From the NCBI GenBank assembly GCA_001822095.1, contig MHPP01000014.1, positions 1,662 to 65,661 on the forward strand: a stretch of 64,000 bases of DNA. Reading direction: 5' to 3'. Source of the DNA: Candidatus Staskawiczbacteria bacterium RIFOXYC1_FULL_38_18 (GTDB lineage: Bacteria; Patescibacteriota; Minisyncoccia; Minisyncoccales; Staskawiczbacteraceae). The notes beneath the pieces were generated by a model. It was given only the letters and a program-made list of their open reading frames with translations. It was not told the origin of the DNA and did not search any database. The position numbers and the translations under genes were made by a program. Shown one piece after another: positions 31,891 to 46,829 of the stretch (its first letter is position 1; every line of letters begins with the position of its first letter).

Positions 31891-31897
31891 ATAAAAA

Positions 31898-32470: not shown

Positions 32471-32471
32471 A

Positions 32472-32897
32472 ATGAAAATAGCAATCGTTGGCAGTTCTCA
32501 TTTTTGCACAGAAATGGTTGAATATAGGGATAAATTGAAAGCTTTGGGACACGAATGTGAGTTGCACGAGCATTATGTTGCCAGGGCAAGCGGTCAAATG
32601 AGAGAATTGTGGGAGAGAATGCAAAAGGAACACGCAAAAGTTAAAATTGAGCACGATTATATCAGGTATCACTACAACGAAATTCTTAACAGCGATGCGG
32701 TTTTGGTTTTGAATTTTGACAAAAATGGAATCAAAAATTATATTGGTGGCAATACCTTGATAGAAATGGGTCAAGCGTATGTTAATAATAAAAAGATTTT
32801 TTTGTTAAATCCTATACCAGATATGCAATACAAAGAGGAAATTGAGGCATTGCAACCAGTTGTAATTAGTAGCAATCTTGATTTAATAAAGATATGA
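32472..32897 (+). CDS. DNPH1/Rcl-like N-hydrolase, paralog 2
   Basis: KIAIVGSSHF and DAVLVLNFDKNG...GGNTLIEMGQAYVNNKKIFLL are paralogous to the 31498 gene. Confidence 0.55.
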   Translation: MKIAIVGSSHFCTEMVEYRDKLKALGHECELHEHYVARASGQMRELWERMQKEHAKVKIEHDYIRYHYNEILNSDAVLVLNFDKNGIKNYIGGNTLIEMGQAYVNNKKIFLLNPIPDMQYKEEIEALQPVVISSNLDLIKI

Positions 32898-33457
32898 ACA
32901 CTAAATTATTAAAACATACAAAAGAACACTGCTTAAAAACTCTTGCGAAAAATAAAGTTTCTTTTGGTTCTGCAAAAGCCGACTCATATCTCCCAGGACA
33001 TATTAACGAGGTTGAAAAGTGTGTGGAAAGAATTATTAAAGATTATCCAGCAGATAGAGAAATAGTTTTATTATCTGTTTATTTGCACGACATTGGACAC
33101 GCACTTGGAAATCATAAAGACCACGAATTAAAGTCCGAAGCCGAAGCAAAGCGTTTTCTAAAAAAGATGGGTTTGATTGAAGACAAAATAAACAGGGTCG
33201 CTCACTGTGTAAGAGCTCACAGGTGCAAAGATGTTCAACCCGAAACCGTAGAGGCAAAGATTTTGGCAACAGCCGATTCTTTAAGCCATATGACAGATGG
33301 TTGCTATATGGATATGTTAATTGATAGAAGAAAGGATTTGGCACTTGGAAAACTTGAAAGGGATTATAGAGATATTGGCTTGTTTCCAAAAATAAAAAAA
33401 GAAATTATGCCCGTTTACAAAGCTTGGAAAGAATTGATAGAAGTATATCCTGAATGA
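32894..33457 (+). CDS. HD-domain phosphohydrolase
   Basis: The H...HD...H...D motif pattern is present (LSVYLHDIGHALG, AHCVRAHRC, LATADSLSHM). Confidence 0.7.
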   Translation: MNTKLLKHTKEHCLKTLAKNKVSFGSAKADSYLPGHINEVEKCVERIIKDYPADREIVLLSVYLHDIGHALGNHKDHELKSEAEAKRFLKKMGLIEDKINRVAHCVRAHRCKDVQPETVEAKILATADSLSHMTDGCYMDMLIDRRKDLALGKLERDYRDIGLFPKIKKEIMPVYKAWKELIEVYPE

Positions 33458-33458: not shown

Positions 33459-34607
33459 ATGGAAAACGATGAACAACCAGAGATAATAGTAAAATTTATT
33501 AATGAAACAGGCGGAAAAAAATTATCCGAAAAGGAAAAGCGATTACGTTATTCTGTTAGGGTATGGAAAAAAAGATTAAAAAGGAGGAAAGTAATAGAAA
33601 GACGTAAAAAACACATAAGACGTCTTTTACAGGGAAAACCTCTTTCTCTTCATAATGACATCAAAACGAGGGTGAGATATAATGATGTAAGAGCCCCTGA
33701 AGATTTTTCTTTTTTGACAAACACGGAGGAGACAATAGATTTTTTGAATAGGATAGAATCTTATTTTAACAAACGCAAGCAGGTGTTCGTTGTTCTTAAA
33801 AATGTAAAAAATATCGACCATAGTGCCATAACAGTTTTACTTTCATTAATGTATAAATTTAGAGTCGCCAAAATAAAATTCAATGGCGATTTTCCTGATG
33901 ATTTAAAGGTGAAGGAAACAATCGTTGATTCCCAGTTTTTTAGAAAATTATTGTCTCCAATGTCGTCAGATATGGGTAATGATTATACTATGACAAAAAA
34001 TAATCAAATTTTTGCCAGAGCAAACACAATAGTTGTTTCAGAAATGGGAGAAAAAATTATGGAGGAATCCACGAAAACAATTTGGGGAGAGAGGAGAATA
34101 TGTAAGGGATTGCAAAAGACTTTGATTGAATTAATGCACAATACTAACAATCACGCCTCAAGAAGTGAGGACAACCAGGAGCACTGGTGGTTATCTGTTA
34201 ACCACGATAAAGAAAACAAAAAGGTTGATTTCTATTTTGTAGATTATGGACAGGGTATTCTTAGAAGTCTTGAAAGAAAATCTAATCCTAAAATATGGAA
34301 CAATTTTTGGGATAATTTTAAAAAGATGATAGACTTAGGGTCAGAACAAAAGGTCATCGAATGTCTCTTAAACGGAGAGCATTGGAGCCCAGAGCAAAGA
34401 ATACAGCCATATTATAGGGGAAAAGGATTGCCTAGCATAAAAGATTCCTTGAGTAGGGGGCAAATAAGTGATTTGCAGATAATAACAAACAATACACGTT
34501 CTGAAGTCGATTCAAATAATTTTATTCATCTGTCGAAAAATTTTAATGGCACCTTCATCCATTGGAAGTTAGAAAAAAATAACGAAAATAAAATATGGAA
34601 TATATAA
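33459..34607 (+). CDS. STAS-like + GHKL (histidine-kinase-like) ATPase domain protein
   Basis: A central STAS-like block (KQVFVVLKNVKNIDHSAITVLLSLMYKFR) is present. The C-terminal Bergerat-fold boxes are the N-box (ELMHNTNNHA), G1 (VDYGQGI) and G2 (RGKGLPSI). The N-terminus is highly basic. Confidence 0.5.
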   Translation: MENDEQPEIIVKFINETGGKKLSEKEKRLRYSVRVWKKRLKRRKVIERRKKHIRRLLQGKPLSLHNDIKTRVRYNDVRAPEDFSFLTNTEETIDFLNRIESYFNKRKQVFVVLKNVKNIDHSAITVLLSLMYKFRVAKIKFNGDFPDDLKVKETIVDSQFFRKLLSPMSSDMGNDYTMTKNNQIFARANTIVVSEMGEKIMEESTKTIWGERRICKGLQKTLIELMHNTNNHASRSEDNQEHWWLSVNHDKENKKVDFYFVDYGQGILRSLERKSNPKIWNNFWDNFKKMIDLGSEQKVIECLLNGEHWSPEQRIQPYYRGKGLPSIKDSLSRGQISDLQIITNNTRSEVDSNNFIHLSKNFNGTFIHWKLEKNNENKIWNI

Positions 34608-34930
34608 AAATTTTAATAGCAAAAGATTTTTCAAAAACGCCTGGTCCTCGCTATAAAAAGGAGGGGTCTTTTTCCGCTGAGCTTTTTTTAGAACAGATAT
34701 TGGAGAAAAAGTTTACAGATATTTTGGAAAAGAAGGATAAAAAAATAATTATTGATTTGGACGGAACGCTTGGCTATGGAACAAGCTTTTTGGAGGAAAC
34801 TTTCGGAGGGCTTGCCAGAAAATATGGAGCGGATAAAGTGAGTGAAAAAATTGAAGTTGCCTCGAAAGAGGAGCCGTGGCTTTTGGAGGATATTAAGAGC
34901 TATATTGAAGATGTCAAAAAGCAATCCTGA
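34595..34930 (+). CDS. DUF4325-like STAS-fold protein
   Basis: IIIDLDGTLGYGTSFLEETFGGLARKYG resembles the DUF4325/STAS-like motif. The start overlaps the previous gene by 13 nt, suggesting translational coupling. Confidence 0.45.
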   Translation: MEYIKILIAKDFSKTPGPRYKKEGSFSAELFLEQILEKKFTDILEKKDKKIIIDLDGTLGYGTSFLEETFGGLARKYGADKVSEKIEVASKEEPWLLEDIKSYIEDVKKQS

Positions 34931-35534
34931 TGGAGTACTAATTTTTATAATAATCTTTTTGGTTGGGGCAATAATCGGCTCGTGCATTTCTCTTGCGTTT
35001 CTCAACAAATATTCAACTTCGCCATCTGTTTCGATAGACCCAATAGATGGTATTTCTATATTCGTTAACGTGTTATTGGTAATATATGTAACCAGGACGT
35101 TGACTCGCAAAAACGAAGAGGAGAGGGTCGAAAAAGAAATTTTAATAAAACAACTGCAAGATTTTCAGGATTGTCTCGATAACACTATTACTAGATTGCT
35201 TTCAACGGAAAAGCTAAAACTGGTTGCGGTTAATGCTAATCTTAAGACGCTTAGAAGGAATTTTAATTCAATTCGTGAGTTGCTTAAGAAATATAATTTT
35301 ATTTCACAAGCTGAAGATAATGATATTTGTAACACCATAGACGCAATTCTAAGAGACATTAAGGATTTTTTTACTGATACGCCAAGAACTGGAGAAAATG
35401 GGGAAAAGGATGTTGGAGTTAATCAAGACGAAATTTCCTTAGGAGCACAGAATAGGCAGGGGATAGATGATTCAACTATGAAGGCAAAAGGAAAAATCTT
35501 TGAATTGGTTGTATTAATAAACAGAAAAGAATAG
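34915..35534 (+). CDS. Hypothetical single-TM, coiled-coil protein (third gene of the module)
   Basis: An internal Met (MSKSNPDG) overlaps the upstream stop. One TM helix is followed by predicted helical/coiled-coil sequence. No recognisable domain. Confidence 0.4.
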
Positions 35535-35559
35535 ACGCTTATTTTTTATATTTTAGGGA

Positions 35560-35586: not shown

Positions 35587-35709
35587 TGTTTTTGGGGTTG
35601 GTAAGAGTCGGATATTTTGGAGTTTCACGACTTGCAAAAAATATCAATCCGTTGTAATGTTTTAATATCGTAGTTTCGTTTCAGGGCTCTTTCACAAGGG
35701 AGACAGAAA

Positions 35710-36039
35710 GTGGACGGAGCAATTCTTGACCAGTTGACTGGCAAACAATACGATTTGCCTGTCTTTGAAAACGATTTGGTGAGGGTTGAATCTGCTGGGA
35801 GAGTTATCCGAGTCGGTATCAAAGACCGAGGGATGGCTTTCTCTTGGTGGGAACCGACTCATCCCTTCTCTGGTAACCGCAGTCTACCGCAACAGCGAGG
35901 TTGGGATTTTCAAGTGGAAACCCCCAACGAGAATGAGACCAGAGCGATTTTTTCAAAGGGAAGCGTGAGGCACGTTCTCACGCTCACCTGCACAAACCCC
36001 AACGTGAAGCCCAAGACCATTGAAGTGAAGTGGGATTAA
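35710..36039 (+). CDS. Hypothetical protein (moderately GC-rich gene)
   Basis: A GTG start has a good SD (AAGGGAGA). The 109-aa ORF is GC-richer than its surroundings. Confidence 0.4.
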   Translation: MDGAILDQLTGKQYDLPVFENDLVRVESAGRVIRVGIKDRGMAFSWWEPTHPFSGNRSLPQQRGWDFQVETPNENETRAIFSKGSVRHVLTLTCTNPNVKPKTIEVKWD

Positions 36040-36065
36040 GTTTTCAATTTTGAAAGGAAACGGCA

Positions 36066-36338
36066 ATGACCACCGCAAGCGACATTAAGAACGTTGCACA
36101 AAGTACCGAAGAAAATCCTTCTCGACTTGGATGCTTCATCTTGAAACCTCCCGTGAGGCTCAAGTATAAGCCAAGTGGGAAAATCGTCACCGCTTCTATG
36201 GTGGATATCAGCGGGAAGTATCCCAACCACGTCCACACGGAAGAGATGGGATACTGGTATCCAGCCGATAAATTTGAAATCGGCACAGAAGTTATAACCG
36301 TGGAGCCAGCCCCGATTGAGGACTTGCTTAACTCGTAG
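36066..36338 (+). CDS. Hypothetical protein (moderately GC-rich gene)
   Basis: An ATG with an SD (AAAGGAAA). The 90-aa ORF is co-directional with the previous gene. Confidence 0.4.
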   Translation: MTTASDIKNVAQSTEENPSRLGCFILKPPVRLKYKPSGKIVTASMVDISGKYPNHVHTEEMGYWYPADKFEIGTEVITVEPAPIEDLLNS

Positions 36339-36463
36339 TTAAGTAGGTCCAACCCGAGATAACGGAAATCGAAATCATAGCCCAATGACGGAAACGTTAG
36401 CAGGCTCTTTTTTTACAAACGGATAAGCTCGCATTTTCATTTATTTTTTGGTAGGATAAAAAT

Positions 36464-36895
36464 ATGAACGATAAGGAAAAATTAGTATTTTTTGCAAAAC
36501 AAAATTTAGGCAAGCCGTATAAATACGGAGCAAAGCCATCAGAAGCTCCCAAGACTTTTGATTGTTCAAGTTTTGTTCAATATATTTACAAAAAAGTTGG
36601 TATAGCTTTGCCAAGGACAGCTCTTGAGCAGGCTCATCTTGGTAAAAAAGTTAAACCCAAAAGAGAGTATTTGCAAATAGGTGATTTGATATTTATAAAA
36701 GGTATGGTTGGTAGATATAATGAAGAGTTTCCGCAAGGAATAGGACACGTTGCAATGTATATCGGAGATGGCAAAATAATACAGGCTAAATATCAAAAAA
36801 ATAAAAATGGGTCTGATGGTGGAAAAGTACAGGTAGATTCAGTCGCAAAAATAATAAATAGAAAAAATTTGGTTGTCATAAAAAGAATAATTTAA
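36464..36895 (+). CDS. NlpC/P60 (C40) cell-wall peptidase
   Basis: The catalytic Cys block FDCSSFVQYIY and the His block GHVAMYIGDGKIIQA are present. Confidence 0.75.
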   Translation: MNDKEKLVFFAKQNLGKPYKYGAKPSEAPKTFDCSSFVQYIYKKVGIALPRTALEQAHLGKKVKPKREYLQIGDLIFIKGMVGRYNEEFPQGIGHVAMYIGDGKIIQAKYQKNKNGSDGGKVQVDSVAKIINRKNLVVIKRII

Positions 36896-36903
36896 TTAAA
36901 TTT

Positions 36904-37155
36904 ATGTCGGAAAATTTAAGACCATTTGAAGAACAACCAGAAAAGGAGCAAACCCAAGAGCAGATTTTAGATGCTTTAGAGTCGGCATTTGAAAAAGGAG
37001 CTAAAGCGGAATTAACCGTCTCGGAACCAAGCGGTGAGTTAAGGATAAATTCAGTTTTTATTGAGGGGCTTGAGGGTGGAATGCTTTTTGTTTCTTCATC
37101 AAAAGATTCTCCCGTAATGGGAATACCGATTGGTGATGTTAAAAGGGTGGTATAA
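36904..37155 (+). CDS. Hypothetical small acidic protein
   Basis: An 83-aa ORF co-directional in the operon. Confidence 0.35.
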   Translation: MSENLRPFEEQPEKEQTQEQILDALESAFEKGAKAELTVSEPSGELRINSVFIEGLEGGMLFVSSSKDSPVMGIPIGDVKRVV

Positions 37156-37166
37156 GTCCCAAAAAT

Positions 37167-37832
37167 ATGGAAGATAAAATAATAAAGGTGTCCGAAACAA
37201 TAAAAGTAAACGATTCTTGGAAGGCGAGAACAGAATCTGGCTATCTTGTCAGTTCAAATAAGACGAAATGTATTGATTTGATTTCACATTCAGACCTTGA
37301 TGAAAATAATATCATAGATATATTGATTAGTTTACATATTATTCTGGAAGCTGGTCTGAACGCTTTTTACAGGAATATGGTGCTTATGTCGCTAAAAAAG
37401 GAGTTGGGCGAGTTCGAAGTTATGGAGAACGTGGACAGGGTCAGTTTTATAGATAAAACGGTCGCATTTATTTATTTCTCTAAGTTTGATTTTGAGGGAA
37501 AACTTGATGAGGCAAAAAAATACCACAGCATAATATCCGCTCTTAAGGATTTTTCAGCAATAAGAAATAAATTATTCCACGGACACTCGATAAGCACAAT
37601 CTTCGATGGAGAAAAAAACCGTCACTCGGAATTAAAGGGTAAAATTACTCTGGAAATGTTGATAGAGCAAATGAGAAAGTTTAGGTTTATCTTAGAGGGA
37701 ATGAGATTTTATTTTGATCGCCTGCAATCCAGTATGACTTCAAGTGGCAAGGAATCATTTAAAAAGGAGTATCTAAGCGATGAATTTTTACCGCATTTAG
37801 GTACTTTTGCAGACGTAGATGTAAAAGAATAA
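37167..37832 (+). CDS. HEPN-like (Rx4H motif) protein, possibly Abi_2/AbiD-like abortive infection protein
   Basis: AIRNKLFHGHS contains R-x4-H near the C-terminal third of an all-helical 221-aa protein. It lies in a mobile-element context. Confidence 0.4.
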   Translation: MEDKIIKVSETIKVNDSWKARTESGYLVSSNKTKCIDLISHSDLDENNIIDILISLHIILEAGLNAFYRNMVLMSLKKELGEFEVMENVDRVSFIDKTVAFIYFSKFDFEGKLDEAKKYHSIISALKDFSAIRNKLFHGHSISTIFDGEKNRHSELKGKITLEMLIEQMRKFRFILEGMRFYFDRLQSSMTSSGKESFKKEYLSDEFLPHLGTFADVDVKE

Positions 37833-37840
37833 ATAAATTT

Positions 37841-38458
37841 ATGATTTTAGATTCGTCAATTTCATCAATAACAAATTTAATCGGTAAATTTACGACAGAG
37901 CCGTTTTATTTTAAAGGATTTTCAGCCAGTGTTTTACCAGGTACGGTTGGAATGCCAGGTTTTAATTTAAAACAAAACACAGATAATTTTTATATGATTG
38001 ACTGGAGTTTGGCAATTAAAATGGCGAACTCCTTAAACGAAGATATTGTGATTGAGAATATAAAATCAGAATGGAGAGGAGTAAATGGTTTTGTATGTAA
38101 ATCTGACGATTTCTGTAACAGTATTTATAGAGTAAAAAGCGATGGCGATGTTGACGCAATAGAAAAATTATTGGCTGGAAATAAACAAAAAGTTTTGCTA
38201 CCGTTTTTAATGAAAAAGCAATCAGAAATTATTATTCAGGCGAATTTTGCGTTATACATATACAAAAAGAGGTTTTTGAGACACTTAGATATGGTCCATT
38301 TCAAAAAAATAGAAGTAAAAGAGCCAGACACATATCATCAATTGTATAGAAAAAGTTTAGTAAAGATAAGACTTAATGGTAAATGGAGGTCTTTAGTTCT
38401 AAAACCCCAGGAGTTTTTTGTTGCAGGCGATATTTTGAATATACCAGATACAAATTAA
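37841..38458 (+). CDS. Hypothetical protein
   Basis: A 205-aa ORF with no recognisable domain. Confidence 0.4.
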   Translation: MILDSSISSITNLIGKFTTEPFYFKGFSASVLPGTVGMPGFNLKQNTDNFYMIDWSLAIKMANSLNEDIVIENIKSEWRGVNGFVCKSDDFCNSIYRVKSDGDVDAIEKLLAGNKQKVLLPFLMKKQSEIIIQANFALYIYKKRFLRHLDMVHFKKIEVKEPDTYHQLYRKSLVKIRLNGKWRSLVLKPQEFFVAGDILNIPDTN

Positions 38459-38471
38459 ATAATAATATACT

Positions 38472-39497
38472 ATGAGTAAAAAAATTCTAATAATCGCAGG
38501 AATAGCAATTTTATTAACACTGATTTTTGGCGTTTTTGTTTTGTTGCAAATAAACAATTTAAGGAAACCACAGGTAAGCTCGCTTGAAGCACAAGCGAAA
38601 GCAATTCAAAATCAGATACAGCAGATAGATTCTGAATACAGGCAAAAGATGAATGAAATAACCGATAAGCAGAAACAAAATAACTGCATAGAGTCAAAAG
38701 ATGTTGAAATGATAAAGACGCTAACAGGCGAAAAACAAACAGAAAAACAATGGAGTATAGTTTCAATGGAGGGAATCTGTGGAGATTTATTCAATCAAAA
38801 CGAAGCCTTGGCAAAAGAGAGGTCTTACAAAACAAGTCAGCTACAAACACAGATGGACCTTTTAACCGCCCGAACGGCATCAGACAGAGAAAAGGCAATG
38901 ACTGCGATTAGAACTTTTATGGTTAAACCTGATTTGGAATTAGTGTATACTGGCACCAGACACCCATCCAATTTTAACGTTGGAGTTGTCGTAAATCGGG
39001 ATGAAGGTGGCTACACAATGGAAGGTTTTAGTGGTTGGGAAAGAAGAGTTGAAGTTTACCAACAAACGGAATATATCAACGACAGATGCGAAGTTTACGA
39101 ATATGAGGTGGATGTTAGAAATAATCAAATTGTAGAGATACACGTTCGTTATCCCGATGGGCTGGCAGGAATGAGTAGTGGTAAATGTACAAGCTACGGT
39201 TCAATGGAAGTTCCGTTAAAGACAAAAGACGAAATTGAAAAGGTAGCATTTGCGTATCTTAGCAGAGACCTCGAACACACAAAATTTTTAATTAGGTCTG
39301 ATATCAAGCCAGAATATCTCCCAAGTAAGACGATAGCGAAAAATCCTGCAATGAACGAATGGCGTTGGGAAGATAAGAGTTACAAACTCCCAGAAGGACT
39401 AACAAGCGACCCGTTCCCGTATCCTATGATTAGAATTATCATTTCAAGCGGAGGAAAGCTTGTCTACTATCTGAATACGACAGAACTATTTAATTAA
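38472..39497 (+). CDS. Hypothetical membrane-anchored coiled-coil protein
   Basis: An N-terminal TM helix is followed by a Q/K-rich coiled coil and a C-terminal globular region. Confidence 0.4.
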   Translation: MSKKILIIAGIAILLTLIFGVFVLLQINNLRKPQVSSLEAQAKAIQNQIQQIDSEYRQKMNEITDKQKQNNCIESKDVEMIKTLTGEKQTEKQWSIVSMEGICGDLFNQNEALAKERSYKTSQLQTQMDLLTARTASDREKAMTAIRTFMVKPDLELVYTGTRHPSNFNVGVVVNRDEGGYTMEGFSGWERRVEVYQQTEYINDRCEVYEYEVDVRNNQIVEIHVRYPDGLAGMSSGKCTSYGSMEVPLKTKDEIEKVAFAYLSRDLEHTKFLIRSDIKPEYLPSKTIAKNPAMNEWRWEDKSYKLPEGLTSDPFPYPMIRIIISSGGKLVYYLNTTELFN

Positions 39498-39525
39498 AGG
39501 GTAATTAAGTATATTTTTACAAATT

Positions 39526-39547
39526 GGGGCTAAATGCCCCTTTTTTA
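39526..39547 (+). terminator. Rho-independent terminator
   Basis: ggggctaaatgcccc is followed by TTTTTT. Confidence 0.7.
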
Positions 39548-39653
39548 TTACTGAATGTGTATGCCAAAACAAACCCAAGACAAATCCAAGGGGTGCCCAG
39601 TAAATCAAAAGGCAAAAGAGGTATGTTTGCTGGGGTGGAGGGAGTTAAGGTTT

Positions 39654-39683
39654 GATTGTGAGGTAATTTATGCTATAATTAAT
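39654..39683 (+). promoter_or_regulatory. sigma70-type promoter (TTGATT-16/17-TATAAT) with ~120-nt G/U-rich leader
   Basis: ttgattgtgaggtaatttatgcTATAAT is followed by a gtggtttcgttttgtatcgtatggtgtggtttt leader before the ATG at 39800. Confidence 0.5.
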
Positions 39684-39799
39684 GTATTAAGGTAAGGTTT
39701 TTTTGTATGGTGGCTCTTTAATAAGATAATTGTGGTTTCGTTTTGTATCGTATGGTGTGGTTTTGATAAATTAAATAATTAAATCAAAAACATATCATT

Positions 39800-40135
39800 A
39801 TGGAAAACAAAATAGGTTATATTGAAAAATACCCCAATATCCCAATGAAAAAAAGTTTACTCTGCCTTTTGCTTGGAATCGAGCTGGAAACGCTTAAAGA
39901 AGTTATTAGGTTATCCAATAAAAAAATATCACTTGAGAAGGCGGTTAATATTGTTTGGGAGGAAGGACAAAGACTAATGGCTTGCGGACAGCTAAAGATA
40001 GGCGAGCCAAAATCTGATAATGACCCAATACCCGTTTATCAAACCGAAACGGGAAAGAGAGAGTTCATTATTCGAGTTCTTAATAAAATTAACCCAAAAT
40101 TGAGCAAGAAATTTAAGCAGGATAAAAAGAAGTAA
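39800..40135 (+). CDS. Hypothetical protein
   Basis: A 111-aa ORF followed by a terminator (cccttttagcaaggg+T6 at 40152-40175). Confidence 0.4.
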   Translation: MENKIGYIEKYPNIPMKKSLLCLLLGIELETLKEVIRLSNKKISLEKAVNIVWEEGQRLMACGQLKIGEPKSDNDPIPVYQTETGKREFIIRVLNKINPKLSKKFKQDKKK

Positions 40136-40392
40136 AAGTAAAAATCCATTTAGCCCTTTTAGCAAGGGTTTTTTGGTTATATTGATTTTTAGCAATTTTG
40201 GCGGTAAGATTAAAATAATTTAATATTGGTTGCCTAACCCTTAAAATTTATTTTAAGGTATGGCAAAAAGTCGTTGTGCATATCAAACCCGTCATTCGGG
40301 GGTGTGCACAACGCTATACAGGGAAACTTGTATATGGGTCGCAAGACTCACCCCAGTGGCGGGTTTTATGTTGTGCCACAATTATTAAAAAT

Positions 40393-40713
40393 ATGGAAAA
40401 TCAAACAGAAGAAACAAAAAGTAGTTTTTTTGAACATTGGAAGCGTTCAGTTTTAGTAATTGTAGGATTTGTAGCTATCTGCATATTTATTGGAAGCCTG
40501 CACTTATCCTCTGAACAAAGCGGGGCATTGGTGATAGCAATACCGTTATGTTTATTTTTATACTTCTTACCAGCATATATCGCTTTCAAAAAAGAAAAGA
40601 AAAATAAGGTTGCTATTTTTGCACTAAATTTGTTTTTAGGATGGACACTTATTGGCTGGATTGTTGCACTGGTTTGGAGCTTAACTTATGAAGAAAGAAA
40701 AAATATAAATTGA
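40393..40713 (+). CDS. Superinfection immunity (Imm_superinfect-like) membrane protein
   Basis: YFLPAYIAFKKEKKNKVAIFALNLFLGWTLIGWIVALVWSL matches the phage superinfection-immunity family pattern. The ORF track starts it at 40276; Met 40393 is preferred. Confidence 0.55.
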   Translation: MENQTEETKSSFFEHWKRSVLVIVGFVAICIFIGSLHLSSEQSGALVIAIPLCLFLYFLPAYIAFKKEKKNKVAIFALNLFLGWTLIGWIVALVWSLTYEERKNIN

Positions 40714-41153
40714 ATATCATAACAATTATGAACAAAAAAATTAAGTATATTATAATAGCTGTTTTAGTCTTGTTTGTTGGCTTGCCCGCTATTGCGATGG
40801 GAAGCTCTATAACCAATTCTCTTATTCACGGAAAATCTATACCAGAAGCTATTGAGATTTTATCCACACAAATTGACTCCCTGATTAGCAGAGTTGAAAT
40901 TTTGGAAACTAAACAAATCGAACAGGAGCGAACAATCGCCTGTAATTTTGCAGACGAAGCCCTGCAAAAAGCTCAAATGGAGGGTGGAATAATTGACGCT
41001 GATTTAAAAGGTATAGACGAGTTGATTACCAAAATAACTTACCAACGCGATAATTCTCCGCAAAGCCAATATGAAATGTGGCAATCACGGTTGGATAAGG
41101 TTCGGAGCATAAAAGAGCAATATGATTCTGCCAAAGAAAAATGTAAACAATAA
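40710..41153 (+). CDS. Hypothetical secreted/anchored helical protein
   Basis: An N-terminal hydrophobic segment is present in this 147-aa protein. Confidence 0.4.
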   Translation: MNIITIMNKKIKYIIIAVLVLFVGLPAIAMGSSITNSLIHGKSIPEAIEILSTQIDSLISRVEILETKQIEQERTIACNFADEALQKAQMEGGIIDADLKGIDELITKITYQRDNSPQSQYEMWQSRLDKVRSIKEQYDSAKEKCKQ

Positions 41154-41165
41154 GCATAAAAATAG

Positions 41166-41193
41166 TTGACACGGCTCGTTGAAGTGCTATAAT
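41166..41193 (+). promoter_or_regulatory. sigma70 promoter TTGACA-16-TATAAT
   Basis: aatagTTGACAcggctcgttgaagtgcTATAATtaaaa. Confidence 0.65.
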
Positions 41194-41199
41194 TAAAAA

Positions 41200-41394
41200 G
41201 TAGAAATAGAAGTTCTACATAAAAAATAAACGAAGGGAAGGTAAAATTTAATATCTATACTAACCGTAGGTGAAATAAACTGCGGGAAAAAAATAAACAT
41301 AAAAGGAGATATCTCCTCTGTTTGATTTTTTCCCAACAGACTCACTTATTGTAGTGGTTCTAAAGAAAAAGCGACAGAGATGTCGTTTTTTTCT
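41200..41394 (+). ncRNA. Candidate ~190-nt small RNA (promoter to terminator, no ORF)
   Basis: It lies between a consensus promoter and an intrinsic terminator (gcgacagagatgtcgt + T7 at 41371-41393). It contains the GGAGATATCTCC palindrome. No start codon follows the internal SD-like AAAGGAG. Confidence 0.3.
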
Positions 41395-41437
41395 GTTTTA
41401 GGGGGTCCGCACAAATGATATTAACAAAAATTATTTT

Positions 41438-41692
41438 ATGGAAAAAGAAAAAGAGCTAATAAATATGCAGAGGTGCTCAAGATTTGAAAGCTGCGATATT
41501 GCAAGATGTCCATTGGATTATTTTATGGATGAAAGGGTTGAGCATAAAGAAGACGAAGTCTGCGTTTTGAGAAAACTGCAAGGGAAAGTTAGAACAAGGC
41601 GAATGAAAGGCATCCTGACACCCAAAATGAGGAGTCTTGCCAACTTTGTGTATAAGAAAAATTTTAAAATCAACCAGGGAGCGAATAATTAA
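41438..41692 (+). CDS. Hypothetical small Cys-containing protein
   Basis: An 84-aa ORF; it contains CSRFESCDIARC. Confidence 0.35.
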   Translation: MEKEKELINMQRCSRFESCDIARCPLDYFMDERVEHKEDEVCVLRKLQGKVRTRRMKGILTPKMRSLANFVYKKNFKINQGANN

Positions 41693-41711
41693 ATAACCTT
41701 GAATCAAAAAT

Positions 41712-42524
41712 ATGACAAACACAAACCAAAGCGTAGAAATTGAGGATGGTAGTAATGATAAAAAGTATTTTACAATAATACCAAATTATATTTTAAATCA
41801 TTCCACGCCATACGACAGAGATGTTTATATTCAAATGAAAAGAATAGCTGGTGAACACGGAACTTGTTGGACATCCCAAAAAACATTAGCTAAACAATGT
41901 GGAGTTAGCATCAATCGATTAAAAAAATCATTGAGTTATCTTTTAGATAACAAATGGATAAAATATATGGGAACTAAAAAGGTTGGAACTAAAGGCGGGG
42001 GGCAGGAGGTCAACGAATACAAAATAGTTGATTTGTGGAAAATGAACGGTGAATTTTATGAAATCAAGGGAGTGTCGCCAGACGATATACCTGCAAAACA
42101 AGGGGTATCACTAATAGAACCAAGGGAATGTCACAAAAAAATCAGAGGGGTGTCGCTGGATGATAACAAAGAAGAACCCATTAATAATAAACCCATTAAA
42201 GAAGAGGCGGGCGATAAGGAAAATCTTATTAAAGAAGTGGTGGAGAAATGGAATTCTTATGCCAAACCGTTAGAGGGATATAGAAATAAAACACTGAATA
42301 AATTTGGTCTCCCGAAATGTAAAGGTATAACAGCGGACATTAGGGTCGTTTTTTACAGGCTTATGAAGGAAAAAAGAACAAAGGAGGCAATGTTGGAATC
42401 TATAAAAAATTATATGAATGAAGTAATTAATAGAAGCCCTGATAATGACTATGCGATTCACAGATTTTCGTTTTATGAGTTTTTTAATCAGGATAATGGT
42501 TTTGTAAAATTTAGTAACAAATAA
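41712..42524 (+). CDS. Phage/plasmid replication-initiation-like HTH protein (DnaD/HTH_36-like)
   Basis: FTIIPNYILNH...DRDVYIQMKRIAGEHGTCWTSQKTLAKQCGVSINRLKKSLSYLLDNKWI is an N-terminal wHTH typical of replisome organiser/Rep proteins. Confidence 0.45.
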   Translation: MTNTNQSVEIEDGSNDKKYFTIIPNYILNHSTPYDRDVYIQMKRIAGEHGTCWTSQKTLAKQCGVSINRLKKSLSYLLDNKWIKYMGTKKVGTKGGGQEVNEYKIVDLWKMNGEFYEIKGVSPDDIPAKQGVSLIEPRECHKKIRGVSLDDNKEEPINNKPIKEEAGDKENLIKEVVEKWNSYAKPLEGYRNKTLNKFGLPKCKGITADIRVVFYRLMKEKRTKEAMLESIKNYMNEVINRSPDNDYAIHRFSFYEFFNQDNGFVKFSNK

Positions 42525-42531
42525 AAAATTT

Positions 42532-43776
42532 ATGACAGATTTAACTTGGCACACAGAAAAACGAAAAGTTAATGACTTACTCCCATTTAAGGGTAACGCA
42601 AGAAAAGAAGATGAAAAACAATCATTTGATTTAAGAAAGAGTTTTGAGAAGTTTGATTTAGTAGAAATACCCGCAATAAATACGGACAATACTACTTTGG
42701 CGGGAAACAGAAGATTAAGAATGCTTCAATTACTTGGGAGAGGAGAAGAAATGATTGACGTTAGGGTTCCGAACAGAGCTTTAACAACGGAGGAGGTGAA
42801 GGAATATAATTTAAGAAGTAATAAAAATACGGCTTCTTGGGATATTGGCTTGCTTGCAAATTTTGACGAAGGTTTGTTGAAGGAGGTCGGCTGGGAAGGT
42901 TGGGAGTTGGATGAAATATTTAGTCCAAATGTTGAAGATGATGATTCATTTGATGTTGAATCAGAGACTAAAAAAATAACAGAGCCAAAAGTTAAGTTTG
43001 GCGATTTGTATGAAGTAAACGGGCACAGAATTTTATGCGGAAATAGTCAGGACCCAGAACGGGTCGAAAAATTAATGGATAGAAAGGTCGCAAAATTAAT
43101 TTTTACAAGCCCGCCATATAATATGGCTGGGAAGATGTATAAAAATTATTCTGACAATTTGAAAAGCGAGGAATATATAAAATTTAACCTTGATGTCCTC
43201 CAAAATTGTAAAAGGTTTTTGAAAGGATTTTGTTTTTGGAACATTTCTTATAACAAAAACGCCAGGTCTGAATTTATTGAAATAATCTATAAGATTATTA
43301 AGGATACTGGCTTGCAGTTTGTAGAGCTAATTGTCTGGGACAAGGGGCACGCCCTCCCAATAGTTTCAAAACAAGGGCTGACGAGAAGGTATGAGGACGT
43401 GTTATTGGTTGGCGATAACGAAAGTGTACAAAGTGATTTGGAAATATATTTTTGTGGGGCGAATGACAAAAAAGTATTTTTCAACAAAAAAAACCAAAAA
43501 GGAATCACAAATTATTGGAGAGTTAATACAAACCAAGCTCAACAGAAAAATCATTTGGCGTGCTTTCCAGTAGCACTCCCAATCAAAGGAATTGAATTGA
43601 TGACACAAAGAGGCGATATTGTATTGGACCCATTTTTGGGAAGCGGGACCACTTTAATAGCATCGGAAAGAACTGGTAGAAAATGTTTTGCTTGTGAATT
43701 GGACCCTTTGTATGTTGAGTTGGCTCTAAATCGTTTTAAATATTTGTTTGGCAAAGAGGCGATAAAAATATGTTAG
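42532..43776 (+). CDS. ParB-like nuclease N-terminal domain fused to DNA N6-adenine/N4-cytosine methyltransferase
   Basis: A ParB-N/Srx fold occupies the N-terminus. The motif IV SPPY (IFTSPPYNM) and a C-terminal AdoMet motif DPFLGSGTT are present. This is a typical phage orphan MTase architecture. Confidence 0.7.
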   Translation: MTDLTWHTEKRKVNDLLPFKGNARKEDEKQSFDLRKSFEKFDLVEIPAINTDNTTLAGNRRLRMLQLLGRGEEMIDVRVPNRALTTEEVKEYNLRSNKNTASWDIGLLANFDEGLLKEVGWEGWELDEIFSPNVEDDDSFDVESETKKITEPKVKFGDLYEVNGHRILCGNSQDPERVEKLMDRKVAKLIFTSPPYNMAGKMYKNYSDNLKSEEYIKFNLDVLQNCKRFLKGFCFWNISYNKNARSEFIEIIYKIIKDTGLQFVELIVWDKGHALPIVSKQGLTRRYEDVLLVGDNESVQSDLEIYFCGANDKKVFFNKKNQKGITNYWRVNTNQAQQKNHLACFPVALPIKGIELMTQRGDIVLDPFLGSGTTLIASERTGRKCFACELDPLYVELALNRFKYLFGKEAIKIC

Positions 43777-44234
43777 AAGATTCAAACGAATTAAATCAGG
43801 AACCTAATAAGATTGAGGCAGAAAATCTCCATAGCAGTGGTGGTTTTGTGGATAAGCCCGAGAGAGATGAGCAGGGCAGATTTGTGAATGGACATCCTAA
43901 ATTGGGCGGAACGAGAATGGGCTATCTCTCTCTTCGAAAGGTTTTACGTGAAATGTTACAGGAAGCCAAAGAGGTAACCATTAACGACCGAAAAGAACAA
44001 AGGACAAGAATGGAAATTTTATTAGAAGTTCTGTTTAAGAAGGCTGTTGGCGGAGACCTGGGGGCAATTCGTGAAATATTTGACAGAATTGAGGGAAAAC
44101 CAAAACCATTAGGCGTAAATGATATGCCTGACGAAATTAATCTGACACAAGTTTTTCAGCAAATATATAATCAAAGTGAGGAAGCTAGAAGGCAGAAGGA
44201 GGAAGAGAATAATTTAGAAAATAAAATTAAATAA
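43770..44234 (+). CDS. Hypothetical protein
   Basis: A 154-aa ORF whose start overlaps the MTase stop. Confidence 0.4.
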   Translation: MLEDSNELNQEPNKIEAENLHSSGGFVDKPERDEQGRFVNGHPKLGGTRMGYLSLRKVLREMLQEAKEVTINDRKEQRTRMEILLEVLFKKAVGGDLGAIREIFDRIEGKPKPLGVNDMPDEINLTQVFQQIYNQSEEARRQKEEENNLENKIK

Positions 44235-44245
44235 GATTTTTAAAA

Positions 44246-44449
44246 ATGAAAAGGAATGAATTAAAAACTAATTATACGTCAAAAAAGGATGAAGGAAGAA
44301 GAAACTTCGCCCTTAATTATATCGCTAACCATATTAAAAAGAATTTACAGAACCTATCTAAATTTAAGTGGGGAGGTGGGGGATTTGCTTGTTTTGTGAA
44401 TTTGGAGCGACCCCACAGCGAACAAGAGGGTCAAGACAAAAGTAAATAA
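44246..44449 (+). CDS. Hypothetical small protein
   Basis: A 67-aa ORF. Confidence 0.3.
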   Translation: MKRNELKTNYTSKKDEGRRNFALNYIANHIKKNLQNLSKFKWGGGGFACFVNLERPHSEQEGQDKSK

Positions 44450-44609
44450 ACTACCCTGGGTAAAATGAGTAGATTTTGAGGGTAATAAGGCAAAACAAAC
44501 AATCAAGTGATTATTCAGTCCTGTCCGTAGAGAGAGGCTTTGACGCAAGGGTTGTCCAGCGTCATCATCACGCCACTGGTAAAGTAAATTAAAAAGCCAG
44601 TGTAAAAAT

Positions 44610-45155
44610 ATGGACAACAAAAAATGTGCTTTGTATCTACGGGTCAGCAAAAGCGACCAGACAACATTGAATCAAGAATTGGAATTGAAAGGTTATTGTC
44701 AGCGGAACGATTGGGATATTTTCAATGTTTACAAAGACGAAGGCGTGTCTGGCTCAAAGACATCAAGACCAGAGTTAGATAAAATGTTAAAAGATGTGCG
44801 GGACAAAAAGTTTGAAGCGGTGATTGTTTGGAAATTTGACCGCTTAGGCAGGTCAACGGCTCATCTTTTACAGGTTTTAGAAGAAATGAAGAATAAAGGA
44901 ATCAGATTGATAGCAACAAGCCAAAGCATAGACACAGACACCGCAATGGGTAAATTCTTTTTTACAATCTTATCTGGGTTTGCTGAAATGGAACGAGGAA
45001 TAATAACAGAAAGAATAAATTTGGGTTTAGCAAGGGTAAAAAAACAAGGGAAAAAGTTGGGTCGCCCATCAGGCTCAAAAGATAAAAGTTATCGTAAAAA
45101 GTCGGGATATTTGCTTCGCTGGCAAAATCAACAAAATCTAAAAGTTTCAATTTAA
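44610..45155 (+). CDS. Small serine recombinase (resolvase/invertase family)
   Basis: The catalytic Ser (ALYLRVSKSDQ) is in a resolvase N-domain, with FDRLGRS and a C-terminal HTH. Confidence 0.8.
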   Translation: MDNKKCALYLRVSKSDQTTLNQELELKGYCQRNDWDIFNVYKDEGVSGSKTSRPELDKMLKDVRDKKFEAVIVWKFDRLGRSTAHLLQVLEEMKNKGIRLIATSQSIDTDTAMGKFFFTILSGFAEMERGIITERINLGLARVKKQGKKLGRPSGSKDKSYRKKSGYLLRWQNQQNLKVSI

Positions 45156-45159
45156 AAAT

Positions 45160-46776
45160 ATGAATCTAAAATCAGCAATCTATGGCAGGGTAAGTCCGAG
45201 TTCTAAAAAATCCATAGAAAACGAGACTATTGAAGACCAAACCGAAAAAAACAAAAAATTCATTATAAGAAATAATGATATTTTGGTTGATATTTATCCA
45301 GACGACCAATATTCTGGTCATTTGGAAAGAAGACCCAGTTTTGATAGATTATTAGAAGATGCAAAATTGGGTCGAATTGAATCTGTTTATATTACAAAAA
45401 TTGATAGACTTGCGAGGGACCCTGGGACGCAGATTTATTGTCTTAAGGAGTTAAAAAAATTAAATCTAAAAGTTTTTCTTGGTGGAGAACTTCTTGATGA
45501 CACACCCGAAGGAAAACTCTTGCTTGGTATACTCGGGCAATTTAGTGAATACGAGGCATCACAAATTGTCATAAGAACCACAAACGGAAGGTGGCGAAAA
45601 GCCAGAGCTGGAAAGATTATCGCCTCCGTTACTCGTTATGGTTTTAAGTTAGAATGGGTTAAAAGGGGAGATGAAAATATTAAAATAGTTTCGATAGATG
45701 AAAATGAATCTAAGGTAGTACTTTATATGTTTGATTTGATATTCAAATGCAGAAGCTGTCATCAGGTAGCTAAAAAATTATTTGAAGAGGGAATTAAAAC
45801 GAGAAATGGAAAAAATTGGGACGCAACCACGGTAAAAGGAGTTTTGACAGATAAAACTTATACAGGAATTTGGCACTACGGCAAAAGATTAGCAGTAGAA
45901 CCAAAGAAAAAGAGAAAGACATATTACAGGTGCCTTAATTCAAGCACAATGGCTAATCCGAACAAGGATGATATCATTTATTACAAAATTCCTGCAATAG
46001 TTAGTAAAGAAAGGTTTGACGCAGTCCAAGAGCTTTTAAAAGAAATTAGTAAAAGAAGAGTTGAAACAAAAAGATTTTATCTTTTAAACGGTATTTTAAG
46101 ATGTGCGAAATGCGGAGCTAAAATGTATGGGAGGAGTTTGTATGATAAAAGATACAATAGATATTATACATATTATTATTGTTCGACCAATTCAAAACCT
46201 TTTCACAAGGCTCCTTGCCCCACGAATCAAGTTAGAAGTAAGGATGTTGAAAAAACGGTTTGGGAGGCGGTGCAAAATATCTTTCATAATCCTGAAAATA
46301 TTTTGTCTTGCAACGAAGCATATTTGAAAGAAAACTATAATCAGGATAAAATAGCGGATGAGAAAAGGTTGCTACTTGCAGAACTAGAAAAAATAAGGCA
46401 AAATAAGATAAAGCAATTAGAGCTTTATGAGATAGACGATGTTATCGATAAGGTCGTTATTAAAGAAAGACTAAATTTTTTATCTGGTAAGGAGCAGTAC
46501 CTAAAAAAGAAATTAGAAGTTATTGATAAATCTGCAACAAGTTCAGAGATGAACAAACATTTAGTTGAGAGCGTAAAGGAATTTGGTAAGCTAATGGAGA
46601 TTGATTTGGAAAAAATGACCGATATTGAGAAAAAAGAATTGCTGATGGGAATGCTGGTATATGTGGAGTTTGACCCAGATAATATGGGCGTTAATGTTGT
46701 TGGAAGTATAGAAGGAATAGACACCGCAAATAAACTTGGGAAAAAGCTTGAGGTATTGAAATTATTAAGGACTTAA
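45160..46776 (+). CDS. Large serine recombinase (phage-type integrase)
   Basis: A resolvase N-domain (AIYGRVSPSSKKS, DRLARDP), a recombinase domain, a zinc ribbon (CAKCGAKMYG...C) and a coiled coil make up the 538-aa protein. Confidence 0.8.
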   Translation: MNLKSAIYGRVSPSSKKSIENETIEDQTEKNKKFIIRNNDILVDIYPDDQYSGHLERRPSFDRLLEDAKLGRIESVYITKIDRLARDPGTQIYCLKELKKLNLKVFLGGELLDDTPEGKLLLGILGQFSEYEASQIVIRTTNGRWRKARAGKIIASVTRYGFKLEWVKRGDENIKIVSIDENESKVVLYMFDLIFKCRSCHQVAKKLFEEGIKTRNGKNWDATTVKGVLTDKTYTGIWHYGKRLAVEPKKKRKTYYRCLNSSTMANPNKDDIIYYKIPAIVSKERFDAVQELLKEISKRRVETKRFYLLNGILRCAKCGAKMYGRSLYDKRYNRYYTYYYCSTNSKPFHKAPCPTNQVRSKDVEKTVWEAVQNIFHNPENILSCNEAYLKENYNQDKIADEKRLLLAELEKIRQNKIKQLELYEIDDVIDKVVIKERLNFLSGKEQYLKKKLEVIDKSATSSEMNKHLVESVKEFGKLMEIDLEKMTDIEKKELLMGMLVYVEFDPDNMGVNVVGSIEGIDTANKLGKKLEVLKLLRT

Positions 46777-46787
46777 AGTAGAATACA

Positions 46788-46821
46788 CGATATAATTAAA
46801 AATTTAAAATTTTAAATTCAA
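46788..46821. repeat. 34-bp AT-rich palindromic sequence; copy 2, 12 nt after the integrase stop (candidate att-like site)
   Basis: ataattaaaaatttaaaattttaaattcaaaatt is 33/34 identical to 2987-3020. Confidence 0.7.
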
Positions 46822-46829
46822 AATTAGCT

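Follow-up and report, generated by a model that had tools for sequence, protein, structure and literature searches.

A phage-related integrative element with two serine recombinases lies between ctpA and rplI in a Staskawiczbacteria population

Mobile elements of the ultra-small and mostly uncultured Patescibacteria are poorly characterised. In this work we describe such an element, located in a 64,000-nucleotide stretch (hereafter the window) of Candidatus Staskawiczbacteria bacterium RIFOXYC1_FULL_38_18 (assembly GCA_001822095.1, contig MHPP01000014.1, positions 1,662 to 65,661 of the forward strand), and compare it with the closest described systems. It resembles phage-inducible chromosomal islands (PICIs), Staphylococcus aureus pathogenicity islands (SaPIs) and small-terminase-bearing satellites in its size of approximately 15 kb, in site-specific integration next to conserved genes and in having its own replication initiator. 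As in those islands, large terminase, portal, capsid and tail are absent, and cargo stands beside phage-derived modules; the gene that is small-terminase-like by its position would be a further parallel. With phiC31, Bxb1, TP901-1, A118 and SPbeta the element shares a three-domain recombinase at its edge and att sites with a short common core, and with large-serine-recombinase prophages in general an integration in or by a gene whose reading frame is restored. Two adjacent serine recombinase genes are known from the staphylococcal cassette chromosome SCCmec (CcrA/CcrB). Finally, temperate siphophage-like genomes of 30-40 kb from groundwater bacteria of the candidate phyla radiation (CPR, i.e., Patescibacteria) encode relatives of its initiator, Rep (50-68% identical in the N-terminal domain), as well as a methyltransferase, a DUF5681 protein and cell-wall hydrolases in the same relative order.

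The interval from approximately 31,311 to 46,763 of the window is, in our firm opinion, an integrative element bounded by its own recombinase genes. Public assemblies were queried with the exact ribosomal protein L9 of the window, which gave many window-identical Rifle aquifer contigs and one that differed. Rifle runs in which the element is present include SRR1658343, SRR2177950, SRR2090173, SRR3989314 and the ANAN16 samples. This contig, L018, is a Rifle groundwater/aquifer contig of the same population in which ctpA is joined directly to rplI. It aligns with window positions 28314-31315 at 99.87% identity and with 46756-47606 at 100%; the match breaks off at 31315 and picks up at 46756, and the two alignments share 13 bases. 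The comparison with this empty site gives an insertion of 15,453 bp. The shared core is TTGAAATT[G/A]TTAA, with one mismatch between the two copies, and it occurs twice in the 64-kb window, both times at the junctions, while 0.06 occurrences are expected. The junction features and the flanking genes are the following.

31303..31315, + strand: attL core TTGAAATTGTTAA, inside the ctpA 3' end; the element starts within or just past TTGAAATT (~31311).
46756..46768, + strand: attR core TTGAAATTATTAA, overlapping the -35 box of a promoter-like site (TTGAAA-17-TAGAAT, 46756-46784) upstream of rplI.
30141..31337, + strand: ctpA (S41 peptidase; Pfam Peptidase_S41, 1e-48), with a hybrid 3' end as seen from a comparison of C-termini.
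31406..31427, + strand: terminator-like hairpin just inside the element, 3' of the rebuilt ctpA stop codon; the attP of contig L046 has an analogous hairpin.
Flanking core genes, + strand (profile searches): polysaccharide deacetylase 27609-29615; ctpA 30141-31337; rplI 46830-47303, followed by pyrG and uppS.

Aligned at the junctions, attL reads ...GCCC-TTGAAATTGTTAA-ATCTATCC..., whereas attB and attR both continue as ...TTGAAATTATTAA-GGACTTAAAG... The chromosomal attB, ...AAAGCCC-TTGAAATTATTAA-GGACTTAAAG..., lies in the last ctpA codons and overlaps the -35 box of the rplI-upstream promoter-like site. The attP was reconstructed as ...GCTTGAGGTA-TTGAAATTGTTAA-ATCTATCCCCACAGG..., with the predicted junction string ...GCTTGAGGTATTGAAATTGTTAAATCTATCCCCACAGG... 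Thus attL, attR and attB were observed and attP was reconstructed, and the element is delimited to the base pair. The core has G at the mismatched position in attL, whereas attR and attB have A, and the crossover is therefore placed within TTGAAATT. Assembly collapse is not expected from a repeat of only 13 bp. The GC fraction is 0.43-0.45 in ctpA, drops to ~0.33 at the left boundary and recovers past the right boundary, which lies at 46,763-46,768 within the last codons of the large recombinase gene. The attL and attR sites share only the short core, and attB is regenerated in the empty site of L018; this arrangement is that of a large-serine-recombinase integrative element. To our knowledge, with no literature search aimed at this point, neither the 3' end of ctpA nor the region upstream of rplI is among the targets of large serine recombinases.

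An uninterrupted ctpA-rplI-pyrG order with a conserved attB-like sequence was also found in two related lineages of species rank, represented by four metagenome contigs, whose proteins are 64-68% (CtpA) and 73-80% (L9) identical to those of the window. Candidatus Staskawiczbacteria RIFOXYB1_FULL_38_37 likewise has the uninterrupted order and the attB-like sequence. A comparison of this kind had been proposed in the initial annotation, which was made from the sequence alone, and the intact junctions in L018 and in related species strongly support insertion. That annotation described an integrated mobile element, other than a complete prophage, that ends in a small and a large serine recombinase beside rplI, and so much of it stands. 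Its left boundary at 35,590 has to be abandoned, being 4.3 kb too far to the right, while its second suggestion, possibly 31.4 kb, agrees with the boundary at ~31,311 in the ctpA 3' end. Position 35,590 corresponds to an internal terminator and to the edge of a GC-rich insert. Direct and inverted repeats were sought in the region 30.8-47.3 kb; none was convincing by itself, and the att core became apparent only from the empty-site comparison. Apparent sequence variants in contig L015 turned out to be scaffold N-gaps and no true differences. We also considered two integrating elements in tandem, meeting near 35.6 or 40.16 kb, and rejected this as the primary reading, because the population indel comprises the whole 15.45 kb, a single pair of att cores is present and the left part has no recombinase.

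Integration rebuilds the end of ctpA. The native terminus ...ALEIIKDLK is replaced by the element-encoded ...ALEIVKSIPTGK, i.e., the last five codons (IKDLK, then stop) are exchanged for eight codons of the element (VKSIPTGK, then stop). At the other end, the promoter-like site upstream of rplI has its -35 box in the att core and is regenerated in attR. Since the element brings a substitute CtpA C-terminus and a terminator and spares the rplI promoter-like site, neither of the flanking genes is disrupted. The last codons of the large recombinase, including the stop codon, lie in attR and host DNA, so that the protein has 538 aa in the integrated form and would have 561 aa in the excised form. 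As a separate observation on the flanking genes, the polysaccharide deacetylase at 27609-29615 has an N-terminal array of ~49-aa repeats (GWLPVAGDWDGDGTATIGLY...) with a copy number that varies in the population: the protein is 668 aa long in the window, but contigs L018 and L019 encode versions of 472 and 451 aa, respectively.

Both recombinase genes contain a full catalytic domain in which the catalytic serine motif is kept (YLRVS.. and YGRVS.., by eye). The large recombinase matches PF00239 (5e-25), PF07508 (8e-21) and PF13408 (1e-14), as well as the integrase family phrog_95 (1e-91). The small one, of 181 aa, consists of the catalytic domain and ~30 residues forming a basic, GRP-containing tail with no match to a helix-turn-helix (HTH) domain. 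Within NCBIfam it is matched best by the N-terminal part of large recombinases of the CcrB/XisF type (2e-31). Only 4 nt separate the small from the large recombinase gene, and the small gene appears to be co-transcribed with the integrase gene. The pair is present in all three relatives of the element that we found (L044, L045 and L046, see below). In L044 the small recombinase is 94% identical to that of the window, against 31-76% for the neighbouring proteins. The non-coding region 44450-44609 in front of the pair is similarly conserved; most of its positions are the same in the window as in L044/L045, and the mean column identity of the whole alignment, short coding flanks included, is 90%, whereas the adjoining genes are 31-56% identical at the protein level. 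Judged from sequence, we infer that the small recombinase may be an obligatory partner of the integrase in the manner of CcrA/CcrB, or a directionality or resolution factor. Recombination directionality factors have no common sequence signature, and the small recombinase is a candidate for this function by position only.

Gene families were assigned by searches of Pfam, PHROGs, NCBIfam and PADLOC, supplemented with a lenient Pfam scan. All of the larger open reading frames (ORFs) between 27.6 and 50 kb are on the + strand, and the genes are short. The features of the element, from left to right, are given below.

31498..33457, + strand: nucleoside deoxyribosyltransferase-like (NDT-like) protein 31498-31890; Maf 31898-32470; a second NDT-like protein, p146, 32457-32897; HD phosphohydrolase 32894-33457 (Pfam; the match of p146 to Nuc_deoxyrib_tr is weak, E 0.18 in the lenient scan).
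33459..34930, + strand: 382-aa protein (phrog_3364) with a GHKL N-box-like motif (by eye), and a DUF4325 STAS-like protein (34595-34930; Pfam); no PADLOC match.
34842..35534, + strand: membrane protein with two hydrophobic segments; a strong terminator follows at 35556-35585.
35600..36400, + strand: GC-rich insert, at 46-47% GC where the surroundings have ~33%; it contains two ORFs (35710-36039 and 36066-36338).
36464..36895, + strand: NlpC/P60 cell-wall hydrolase of lysin or tail-lysin type (Pfam, 4e-22; PHROG tail/lysin families).
36904..37155, + strand: 83-aa ORF between the NlpC/P60 and HEPN-like genes; no match at E ≤ 0.01 in Pfam, PHROGs and PADLOC, and none below E 0.06 in the lenient Pfam scan.
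37167..37832, + strand: HEPN-like candidate of 221 aa, all-alpha, in which an RNxxxHG motif is conserved.
37841..39497, + strand: two proteins without family match, of 205 aa and of 341 aa, the latter with an N-terminal transmembrane-like hydrophobic segment; terminator 39526-39540.
39800..40135, + strand: 111-aa ORF without Pfam, PHROGs or NCBIfam match; terminator-like hairpin 40152-40170.
40231..40350, + strand: LOOT RNA (Rfam RF03000), apparent 5' leader of the imm-like operon.
40276..41153, + strand: Imm_superinfect membrane protein (ORF 40276-40713, likely start 40393; 2e-19) and p147b (40728-41153).
41166..41193, + strand: predicted promoter with perfect sigma-70 consensus (TTGACA-16-TATAAT, TG), between the imm-like operon and p84/Rep.
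41438..41692, + strand: p84, 84-aa ORF directly 5' of the Rep gene; no family match; a 29%-identical counterpart lies 5' of the gene at the Rep position in L044 (tblastn).
41712..42524, + strand: Rep, phage-type replication initiator (HTH_36; Pfam, 6e-9; phrog_270, 5e-15).
42532..43776, + strand: ParB-N::N6/N4 DNA methyltransferase (ParB-MTase; phrog_498, 2e-72); no adjacent endonuclease.
43770..44234, + strand: DUF5681 protein (Pfam, 9e-8).
44246..44449, + strand: p67, 67-aa ORF between DUF5681 and the recombinase operon; no family match; a 56%-identical counterpart has the same position in L044/L045 (tblastn).
44450..44609, + strand: conserved non-coding region 5' of the recombinase genes; it contains an inverted repeat (TGACGC-N11-GCGTCA) as well as a hairpin.
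44610..45155, + strand: small serine recombinase (Resolvase, 1e-45).
45160..46776, + strand: large serine recombinase, the integrase (Resolvase, Recombinase and Zn_ribbon_recom domains).

The content of the element is clearly mosaic. Most of the genes named in the initial annotation, i.e., NlpC/P60, the HTH-type Rep, the ParB-N methyltransferase, Imm_superinfect and the two serine recombinases, were recovered by profiles. Its statement that structural phage genes are lacking is also borne out: no capsid, portal, large terminase or tail family was matched in Pfam, PHROGs or NCBIfam, and no Walker-A/P-loop motif occurs in any ORF of the element. Nor was there a Pfam match to a relaxase, coupling protein or type IV secretion ATPase, and neither a primase nor a helicase was found. 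Eleven ORFs matched no family in Pfam, PHROGs, NCBIfam and the lenient scan; the two ORFs of the 800-bp GC-rich patch had no match in Pfam, PHROGs and the lenient scan. Proteins of membrane type or with hydrophobic segments are encoded at 34842-35534, 38472-39497, 40276-40713 and 40728-41153, the last of these, p147b, with the segment at its N-terminus. Every gene had been described as bracketed by consensus promoters and terminators, and this was overstated: 65 promoter-like sites were counted against 52 ± 8 in shuffled sequences and 21 terminator-like sites against 10 ± 3.5, and approximately five strong + strand terminators give roughly five transcription units. The perfect sigma-70 promoter is separated from p84 by a terminator-like hairpin at 41365-41392.

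The term defence cargo, also used in the initial annotation, is not substantiated by the searches. PADLOC recognised no defence system, only its MTase_II and orphan-methyltransferase models on the ParB-MTase, with no restriction endonuclease partner. The left 4.3 kb (two NDT-like proteins, Maf and HD) encodes enzymes of nucleotide salvage and house-cleaning types, plausible as auxiliary functions, and no gene there is recognisable as a defence gene. Patescibacteria are understood to depend on nucleotide salvage. The protein that had been called HEPN/Abi is the 221-aa candidate at 37167-37832. Its family comprises about 90 clusters at 50% identity, and in an alignment of 63 sequences R133 is invariant and N134, H138 and G139 are at least 90% conserved (R133-N-x3-H138-G motif). 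The structure model is almost entirely alpha-helical (mean predicted local distance difference test, pLDDT, 93.6), and the protein thus has the Rx4-6H motif in an all-alpha domain that is used to recognise HEPN. No HEPN or Abi profile of Pfam, PADLOC or NCBIfam matched it or any of the 63 family sequences, and Foldseek gave no significant fold match, the best being HEPN toxins at E~5 and TM-scores of 0.45-0.48. The conserved motif is what remains of the assignment, and a defence role for this part of the cargo would be plausible from sequence.

The phage ancestry of the right part is most apparent in Rep. Over 200 homologues were found, and the few named ones are from Patescibacteria. In all five other contexts examined, homologues with an N-terminal domain 50-68% identical to that of the window are located in phage-like contigs, which range from 14 to 40 kb. 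These are L039-L041, a Rifle phage of ~36 kb that encodes ERF, YqaJ, SSB and HNH besides large tail-like ORFs, as well as L042/L043, L188/L189 and L190. Those at 64-68% identity are in contigs of 30-36 kb, and one of these (~36 kb) is from the same aquifer. In each phage-like contig Rep opens the early region, right after the tail and lysin genes. Within the rep gene, at 42061-42165, three imperfect 27-nt iteron-like repeats (encoding IKGVSPDD, KQGVSLIE and IRGVSLDD) precede an AT-rich stretch, an arrangement reminiscent of lambda-type origins inside the initiator gene.

The DUF5681 gene has a similarly constant setting in phages. In L043 it lies directly 5' of a Terminase_3C gene, and seven further loci were collected from IMG/VR with a DUF5681 alignment. 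In all seven a small DUF5681-like ORF is directly followed by an ORF of 391-456 aa, which has terminase domains in four of the six scanned, and in each of the five loci in which the subsequent ORF was scanned this is a portal gene. DUF5681 is thus found at the small-terminase position in eight of eight phage loci, and we infer a small-terminase-like role from this position. DUF5681 had no match among PDB sequences or in NCBIfam, and the sole paper found to mention it is uninformative on function. In the window, as well as in L044, the recombinase operon and not a large terminase follows 3' of DUF5681. This junction is either the signature of a small-terminase-bearing satellite or the result of a deletion from the large terminase through the tail genes.

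Close homologues of the large recombinase are rare. Among 5.8 billion proteins there were two only, P0121 (76% identical) and P0122 (64%), and beyond these the closest were about 23-29% identical. P0121 is encoded in contigs L044/L045, where the adjoining rplI product is 73% identical to L9 of the window, which places this element in another species. At the same site these contigs contain ParB-MTase (61%), DUF5681 (31%), a p67-like ORF (56%), the small (94%) and the large recombinase, and an attR with the same core. The upstream genes of L044 are non-orthologous equivalents: an O-like/DnaD-like initiator (phrog_9773, 6e-22) occupies the Rep position and VanY replaces NlpC/P60. An HNH endonuclease and UDG are encoded there as well, and no structural genes were found in the 11.6 kb of L044. 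Of the window ORFs without family match L044 shares p147b, p84 and p67, the remaining ones not being conserved there. P0122 is encoded in L046, with the C-terminus of a small recombinase before it and a contiguous attP, instead of rplI, after it. This attP aligns with the reconstructed attP of the window across the core; its ctpA frame encodes ALEIIKSLPTGQ and a stop, then comes the hairpin. L046 is thus by its sequence the unintegrated attP configuration of a relative, and ALEIIKSLPTGQ is a conserved substitute CtpA C-terminus. Relatives of the element are contained in ERZ27250635 (k141_500236 and k141_1579130) and, in the attP form, in SRR20958211.

Two short contigs from independent assemblies, L026 and L028, bear on mobility. 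In these the element adjoins a ctpA whose identity to that of the window, upstream of ~31198, is no more than 68-77%; from there on L028 is 98-100% identical, and L026 is 99.5% identical overall (L026 1-400 and L028 1-500 against window 31018-31433). This points to a second host background. With the breakpoint 110 nt away from the att core, the island may have been imported together with flanking DNA by homologous recombination, e.g., after transformation, or the assemblies may be chimeric. Strain-level presence and absence, combined with the second host background, shows that the element was recently mobile. Searches in other collections gave little. No close relatives were found in IMG/VR with single-protein searches using the large recombinase or Rep; an alignment of the large recombinase retrieved there only recombinases 23-26% identical in unrelated contexts, and none in the GTDB representative genomes. 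A degenerate att pattern, run against metagenome contigs of the Joint Genome Institute, a collection seemingly without Rifle contigs, matched the empty sites of relatives and otherwise chance sequences only. We also noted an element-like contig of 15.3 kb, L055 (Logan SRR33452760_41485), which encodes two large serine recombinases 29% identical to each other together with a copy of p146 (89.5%), a p147b homologue (79%), NUDIX, Peptidase_M78 and DUF4411. The copies of p146 and p147b indicate that cargo genes circulate among differently built elements.

The LOOT RNA belongs to the same circulating material. The window copy is full length (model positions 1-121; 87.1 bits against a gathering threshold of 46.4), starts a few bases past a promoter-like site at 40189-40216 and ends 42 nt before the likely imm ATG at 40393. 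Further copies were found in Patescibacteria islands (L044 2808-2929, L056 7531-7644 and L059 9522-9647). Each copy lies 38-57 nt upstream of the next + strand gene, which is Imm-like in the window and L059, VanY in L044 and a methyltransferase-Mrr gene in L056, the last at the tRNA-proximal edge of a restriction-type island. The L044 copy is 97.5% identical to that of the window, whereas proteins of the two elements are 31-76% identical, and stem changes in the L056 copy seem compensatory (by eye). From its placement LOOT resembles a 5' leader of the cargo operons that mobile islands of Patescibacteria carry. In those parts of its published description that were available LOOT appears only as a metagenome-derived RNA family, and within the same limit the cargo-operon context may be previously undescribed. 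A loose LOOT pattern gave 120 chance matches in viruses, none confirmed by nhmmer, an exact 45-mer gave none, and LOOT was absent from the 13 phage or viral loci examined. Besides LOOT and p146, the Imm/p147b pair recurs in other, differently built islands of Patescibacteria.

We favour the reading that the element is phage-derived, non-autonomous and satellite-like, a view which we hold tentatively and place a little short of probable. In such a life cycle the large serine recombinase would recombine the attP of the element with the chromosomal attB in the ctpA end, with the small recombinase acting as its accessory partner. After excision the element would replicate from its own phage-type initiator with the iteron-like repeats in rep, and the ParB-MTase would methylate its DNA. 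By means of the small-terminase-like DUF5681 protein the element may then enter the capsids of a co-resident Patescibacteria phage of ~36 kb, whose large terminase would package it; packaging by a helper is proposed because the element has no large terminase, portal, capsid and tail genes of its own. The remaining ~9 kb would be accessory cargo, i.e., the nucleotide-salvage-type enzymes, the hydrolase, the HEPN-like protein and the Imm-like protein behind its LOOT leader. In size (15,453 bp, integrated, free of capsid, portal, large terminase and tail) the element falls within the range of PICIs (~10-18 kb), and like them it has a replication module of its own, the HTH_36/phrog_270 initiator with three iteron-like repeats. 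A living lineage of small non-autonomous elements is indicated because the junction is conserved in two species, Rep and lysin have been replaced non-orthologously and the ORFs are intact, and further because of the strain-level polymorphism, the attP form in a relative and the second host background. The fullest version of the proposal is doubtful: that this is the first recognised helper-dependent satellite family of Patescibacteria, integrating at ctpA/rplI, with the small recombinase as obligatory partner or directionality factor, DUF5681 hijacking the ~36-kb phages and LOOT as leader.

Several observations weigh against a satellite. No helper phage came to light, nor did any evidence of packaging. 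For the window element neither a circular nor an attP junction was seen; contigs with its first gene all had ctpA upstream, and contigs with the recombinases all had rplI downstream. The element is absent from IMG/VR (an attP pattern search included, 0 matches), and the left end of the L044 element was not recovered. The breakpoint in the second host background, ~110 nt upstream of the core, is more easily reconciled with homologous recombination or a chimeric assembly than with site-specific integration. A small-terminase role of DUF5681 is read solely from where the gene lies; the window protein matches the family weakly (9e-8) and does not have the GNPAGRPKG-type motif of its relatives, and tblastn against 50,697 deposited phage genomes gave no match to it. 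No repressor/antirepressor switch was recognised and all genes are co-directional, unlike in classical PICIs. A lysin-like enzyme is encoded, which satellites usually do not need.

Among the alternatives, a defective (cryptic) prophage has a modest chance of being correct. A temperate phage of ~35 kb at ctpA/rplI would have lost the module from large terminase to tail by internal deletion, and the remnant may still excise and integrate without forming particles. Indeed, Rep, the methyltransferase, DUF5681 and the lysin-like gene all have phage counterparts and are ordered as in the 30-40-kb phages, the element turns to p67 and the recombinases exactly where the structural module of the phages begins, so that a single deletion suffices, and the attP form of the exact element was not seen. 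However, the same junction of a small-terminase-like gene with the recombinases occurs in a second species, where proteins differ by 6-69% and Rep and lysin are swapped. A conserved junction with swapped modules points to a long-lived and still recombining lineage of small elements and not to a one-off product of decay. All examined ORFs are intact, the element is polymorphic between near-identical strains and has a second ctpA background, and a third relative has a contiguous attP. If it is a cryptic prophage remnant only, the element is ordinary.

An integrative plasmid-like island that is never packaged, and that spreads with host-useful cargo by natural transformation and homologous or site-specific recombination, is unlikely. 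The serine recombinases would serve its excision and integration and Rep its replication, and the benefit to the host would lie, e.g., in nucleotide salvage, remodelling of the cell wall and phage immunity. It would account for a Rep with iteron-like repeats, a ParB-like domain and the absence of virion genes, and it would lead one to expect a second-host breakpoint (~31198) 110 nt outside the core, as for import with flanks by homologous recombination. The sharing of p146, Imm/p147b and LOOT by differently built islands also agrees with it. On the other hand, both elements have kept DUF5681, which in phages is located where the small terminase belongs, Rep has its homologues in phage-like contigs in five of five other contexts, and neither a relaxase nor a partition ATPase nor another plasmid hallmark was found. 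Very improbable is a complete but unrecognisable small virus, e.g., a membrane-containing one of plasmavirus- or pleolipovirus-like type, with structural proteins hidden among the 11 ORFs without family homology. The element does resemble small enveloped prokaryotic viruses in size and encodes several proteins with hydrophobic segments. Yet structural genes should belong to the conserved core, and the ORFs in question are not conserved in L044 apart from p147b, p84 and p67; moreover, there is no packaging ATPase, and ordinary defence-type islands of chromosomes encode p147b and Imm as well. A vertically inherited core region with incidental recombinases, for which the housekeeping-type families Maf, HD and NDT-like and a gene orientation like that of the flanks could be quoted, is refuted for practical purposes by the empty sites, present in a strain of 99.9-100% identity as well as in every related species examined, by the att core and by the GC step.

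Three other loci of the window were noted, separate from the element. A second polymorphic locus lies at ~52730-54790 (and from 56233 onward, - strand), where L002, L003 and L011 diverge at 52728/52729 and L002 rejoins at ~54794; in place of a 644-aa ORF of the window, L002 and L011 encode a DNA_methylase and an HATPase_c_3 protein, with a tyrosine-integrase gene ~1.5 kb further on. At 10953-11858 a 301-aa Ala/Glu/Arg-rich ORF forms a block of 58% GC, against ~37% in the genome, beside a cysS-like gene (by eye); the block appears to be foreign DNA, and Rfam gave no match in it. Finally, an ORF resembling LAGLIDADG_1 homing endonucleases (Pfam; L001 genes) lies at 50093-50608 on the - strand, antisense to the uppS 3' end, with which it overlaps.

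The element yields a ready pair of recombinase and att sites from a CPR organism, and it suggests that Patescibacteria host satellite-like parasites of their phages; a full-text literature search found no paper on satellites in this group. It also supplies a small-terminase label for DUF5681 by consistent gene position, a genomic context for the orphan LOOT RNA, and an uncharacterised pairing of a catalytic-domain-only with a large serine recombinase. Of the genes that mark a complete temperate tailed prophage (large terminase, portal, major capsid, tail), none was found in the element. The CPR phage contigs carry large tail-like ORFs, ERF, YqaJ and SSB, and L043 a large terminase as well, all of which the element does not have, while it carries recombinases and non-phage cargo in their stead. 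In SCCmec the partner of the one large recombinase is a second large recombinase; here it is a 181-aa protein with the catalytic domain only. Compared with PICIs and SaPIs, the element has no recognised Stl-type repressor, divergent control region or primase-helicase and it encodes a lysin-like gene, and in place of a tyrosine integrase with Xis it relies on a large and a small serine recombinase.

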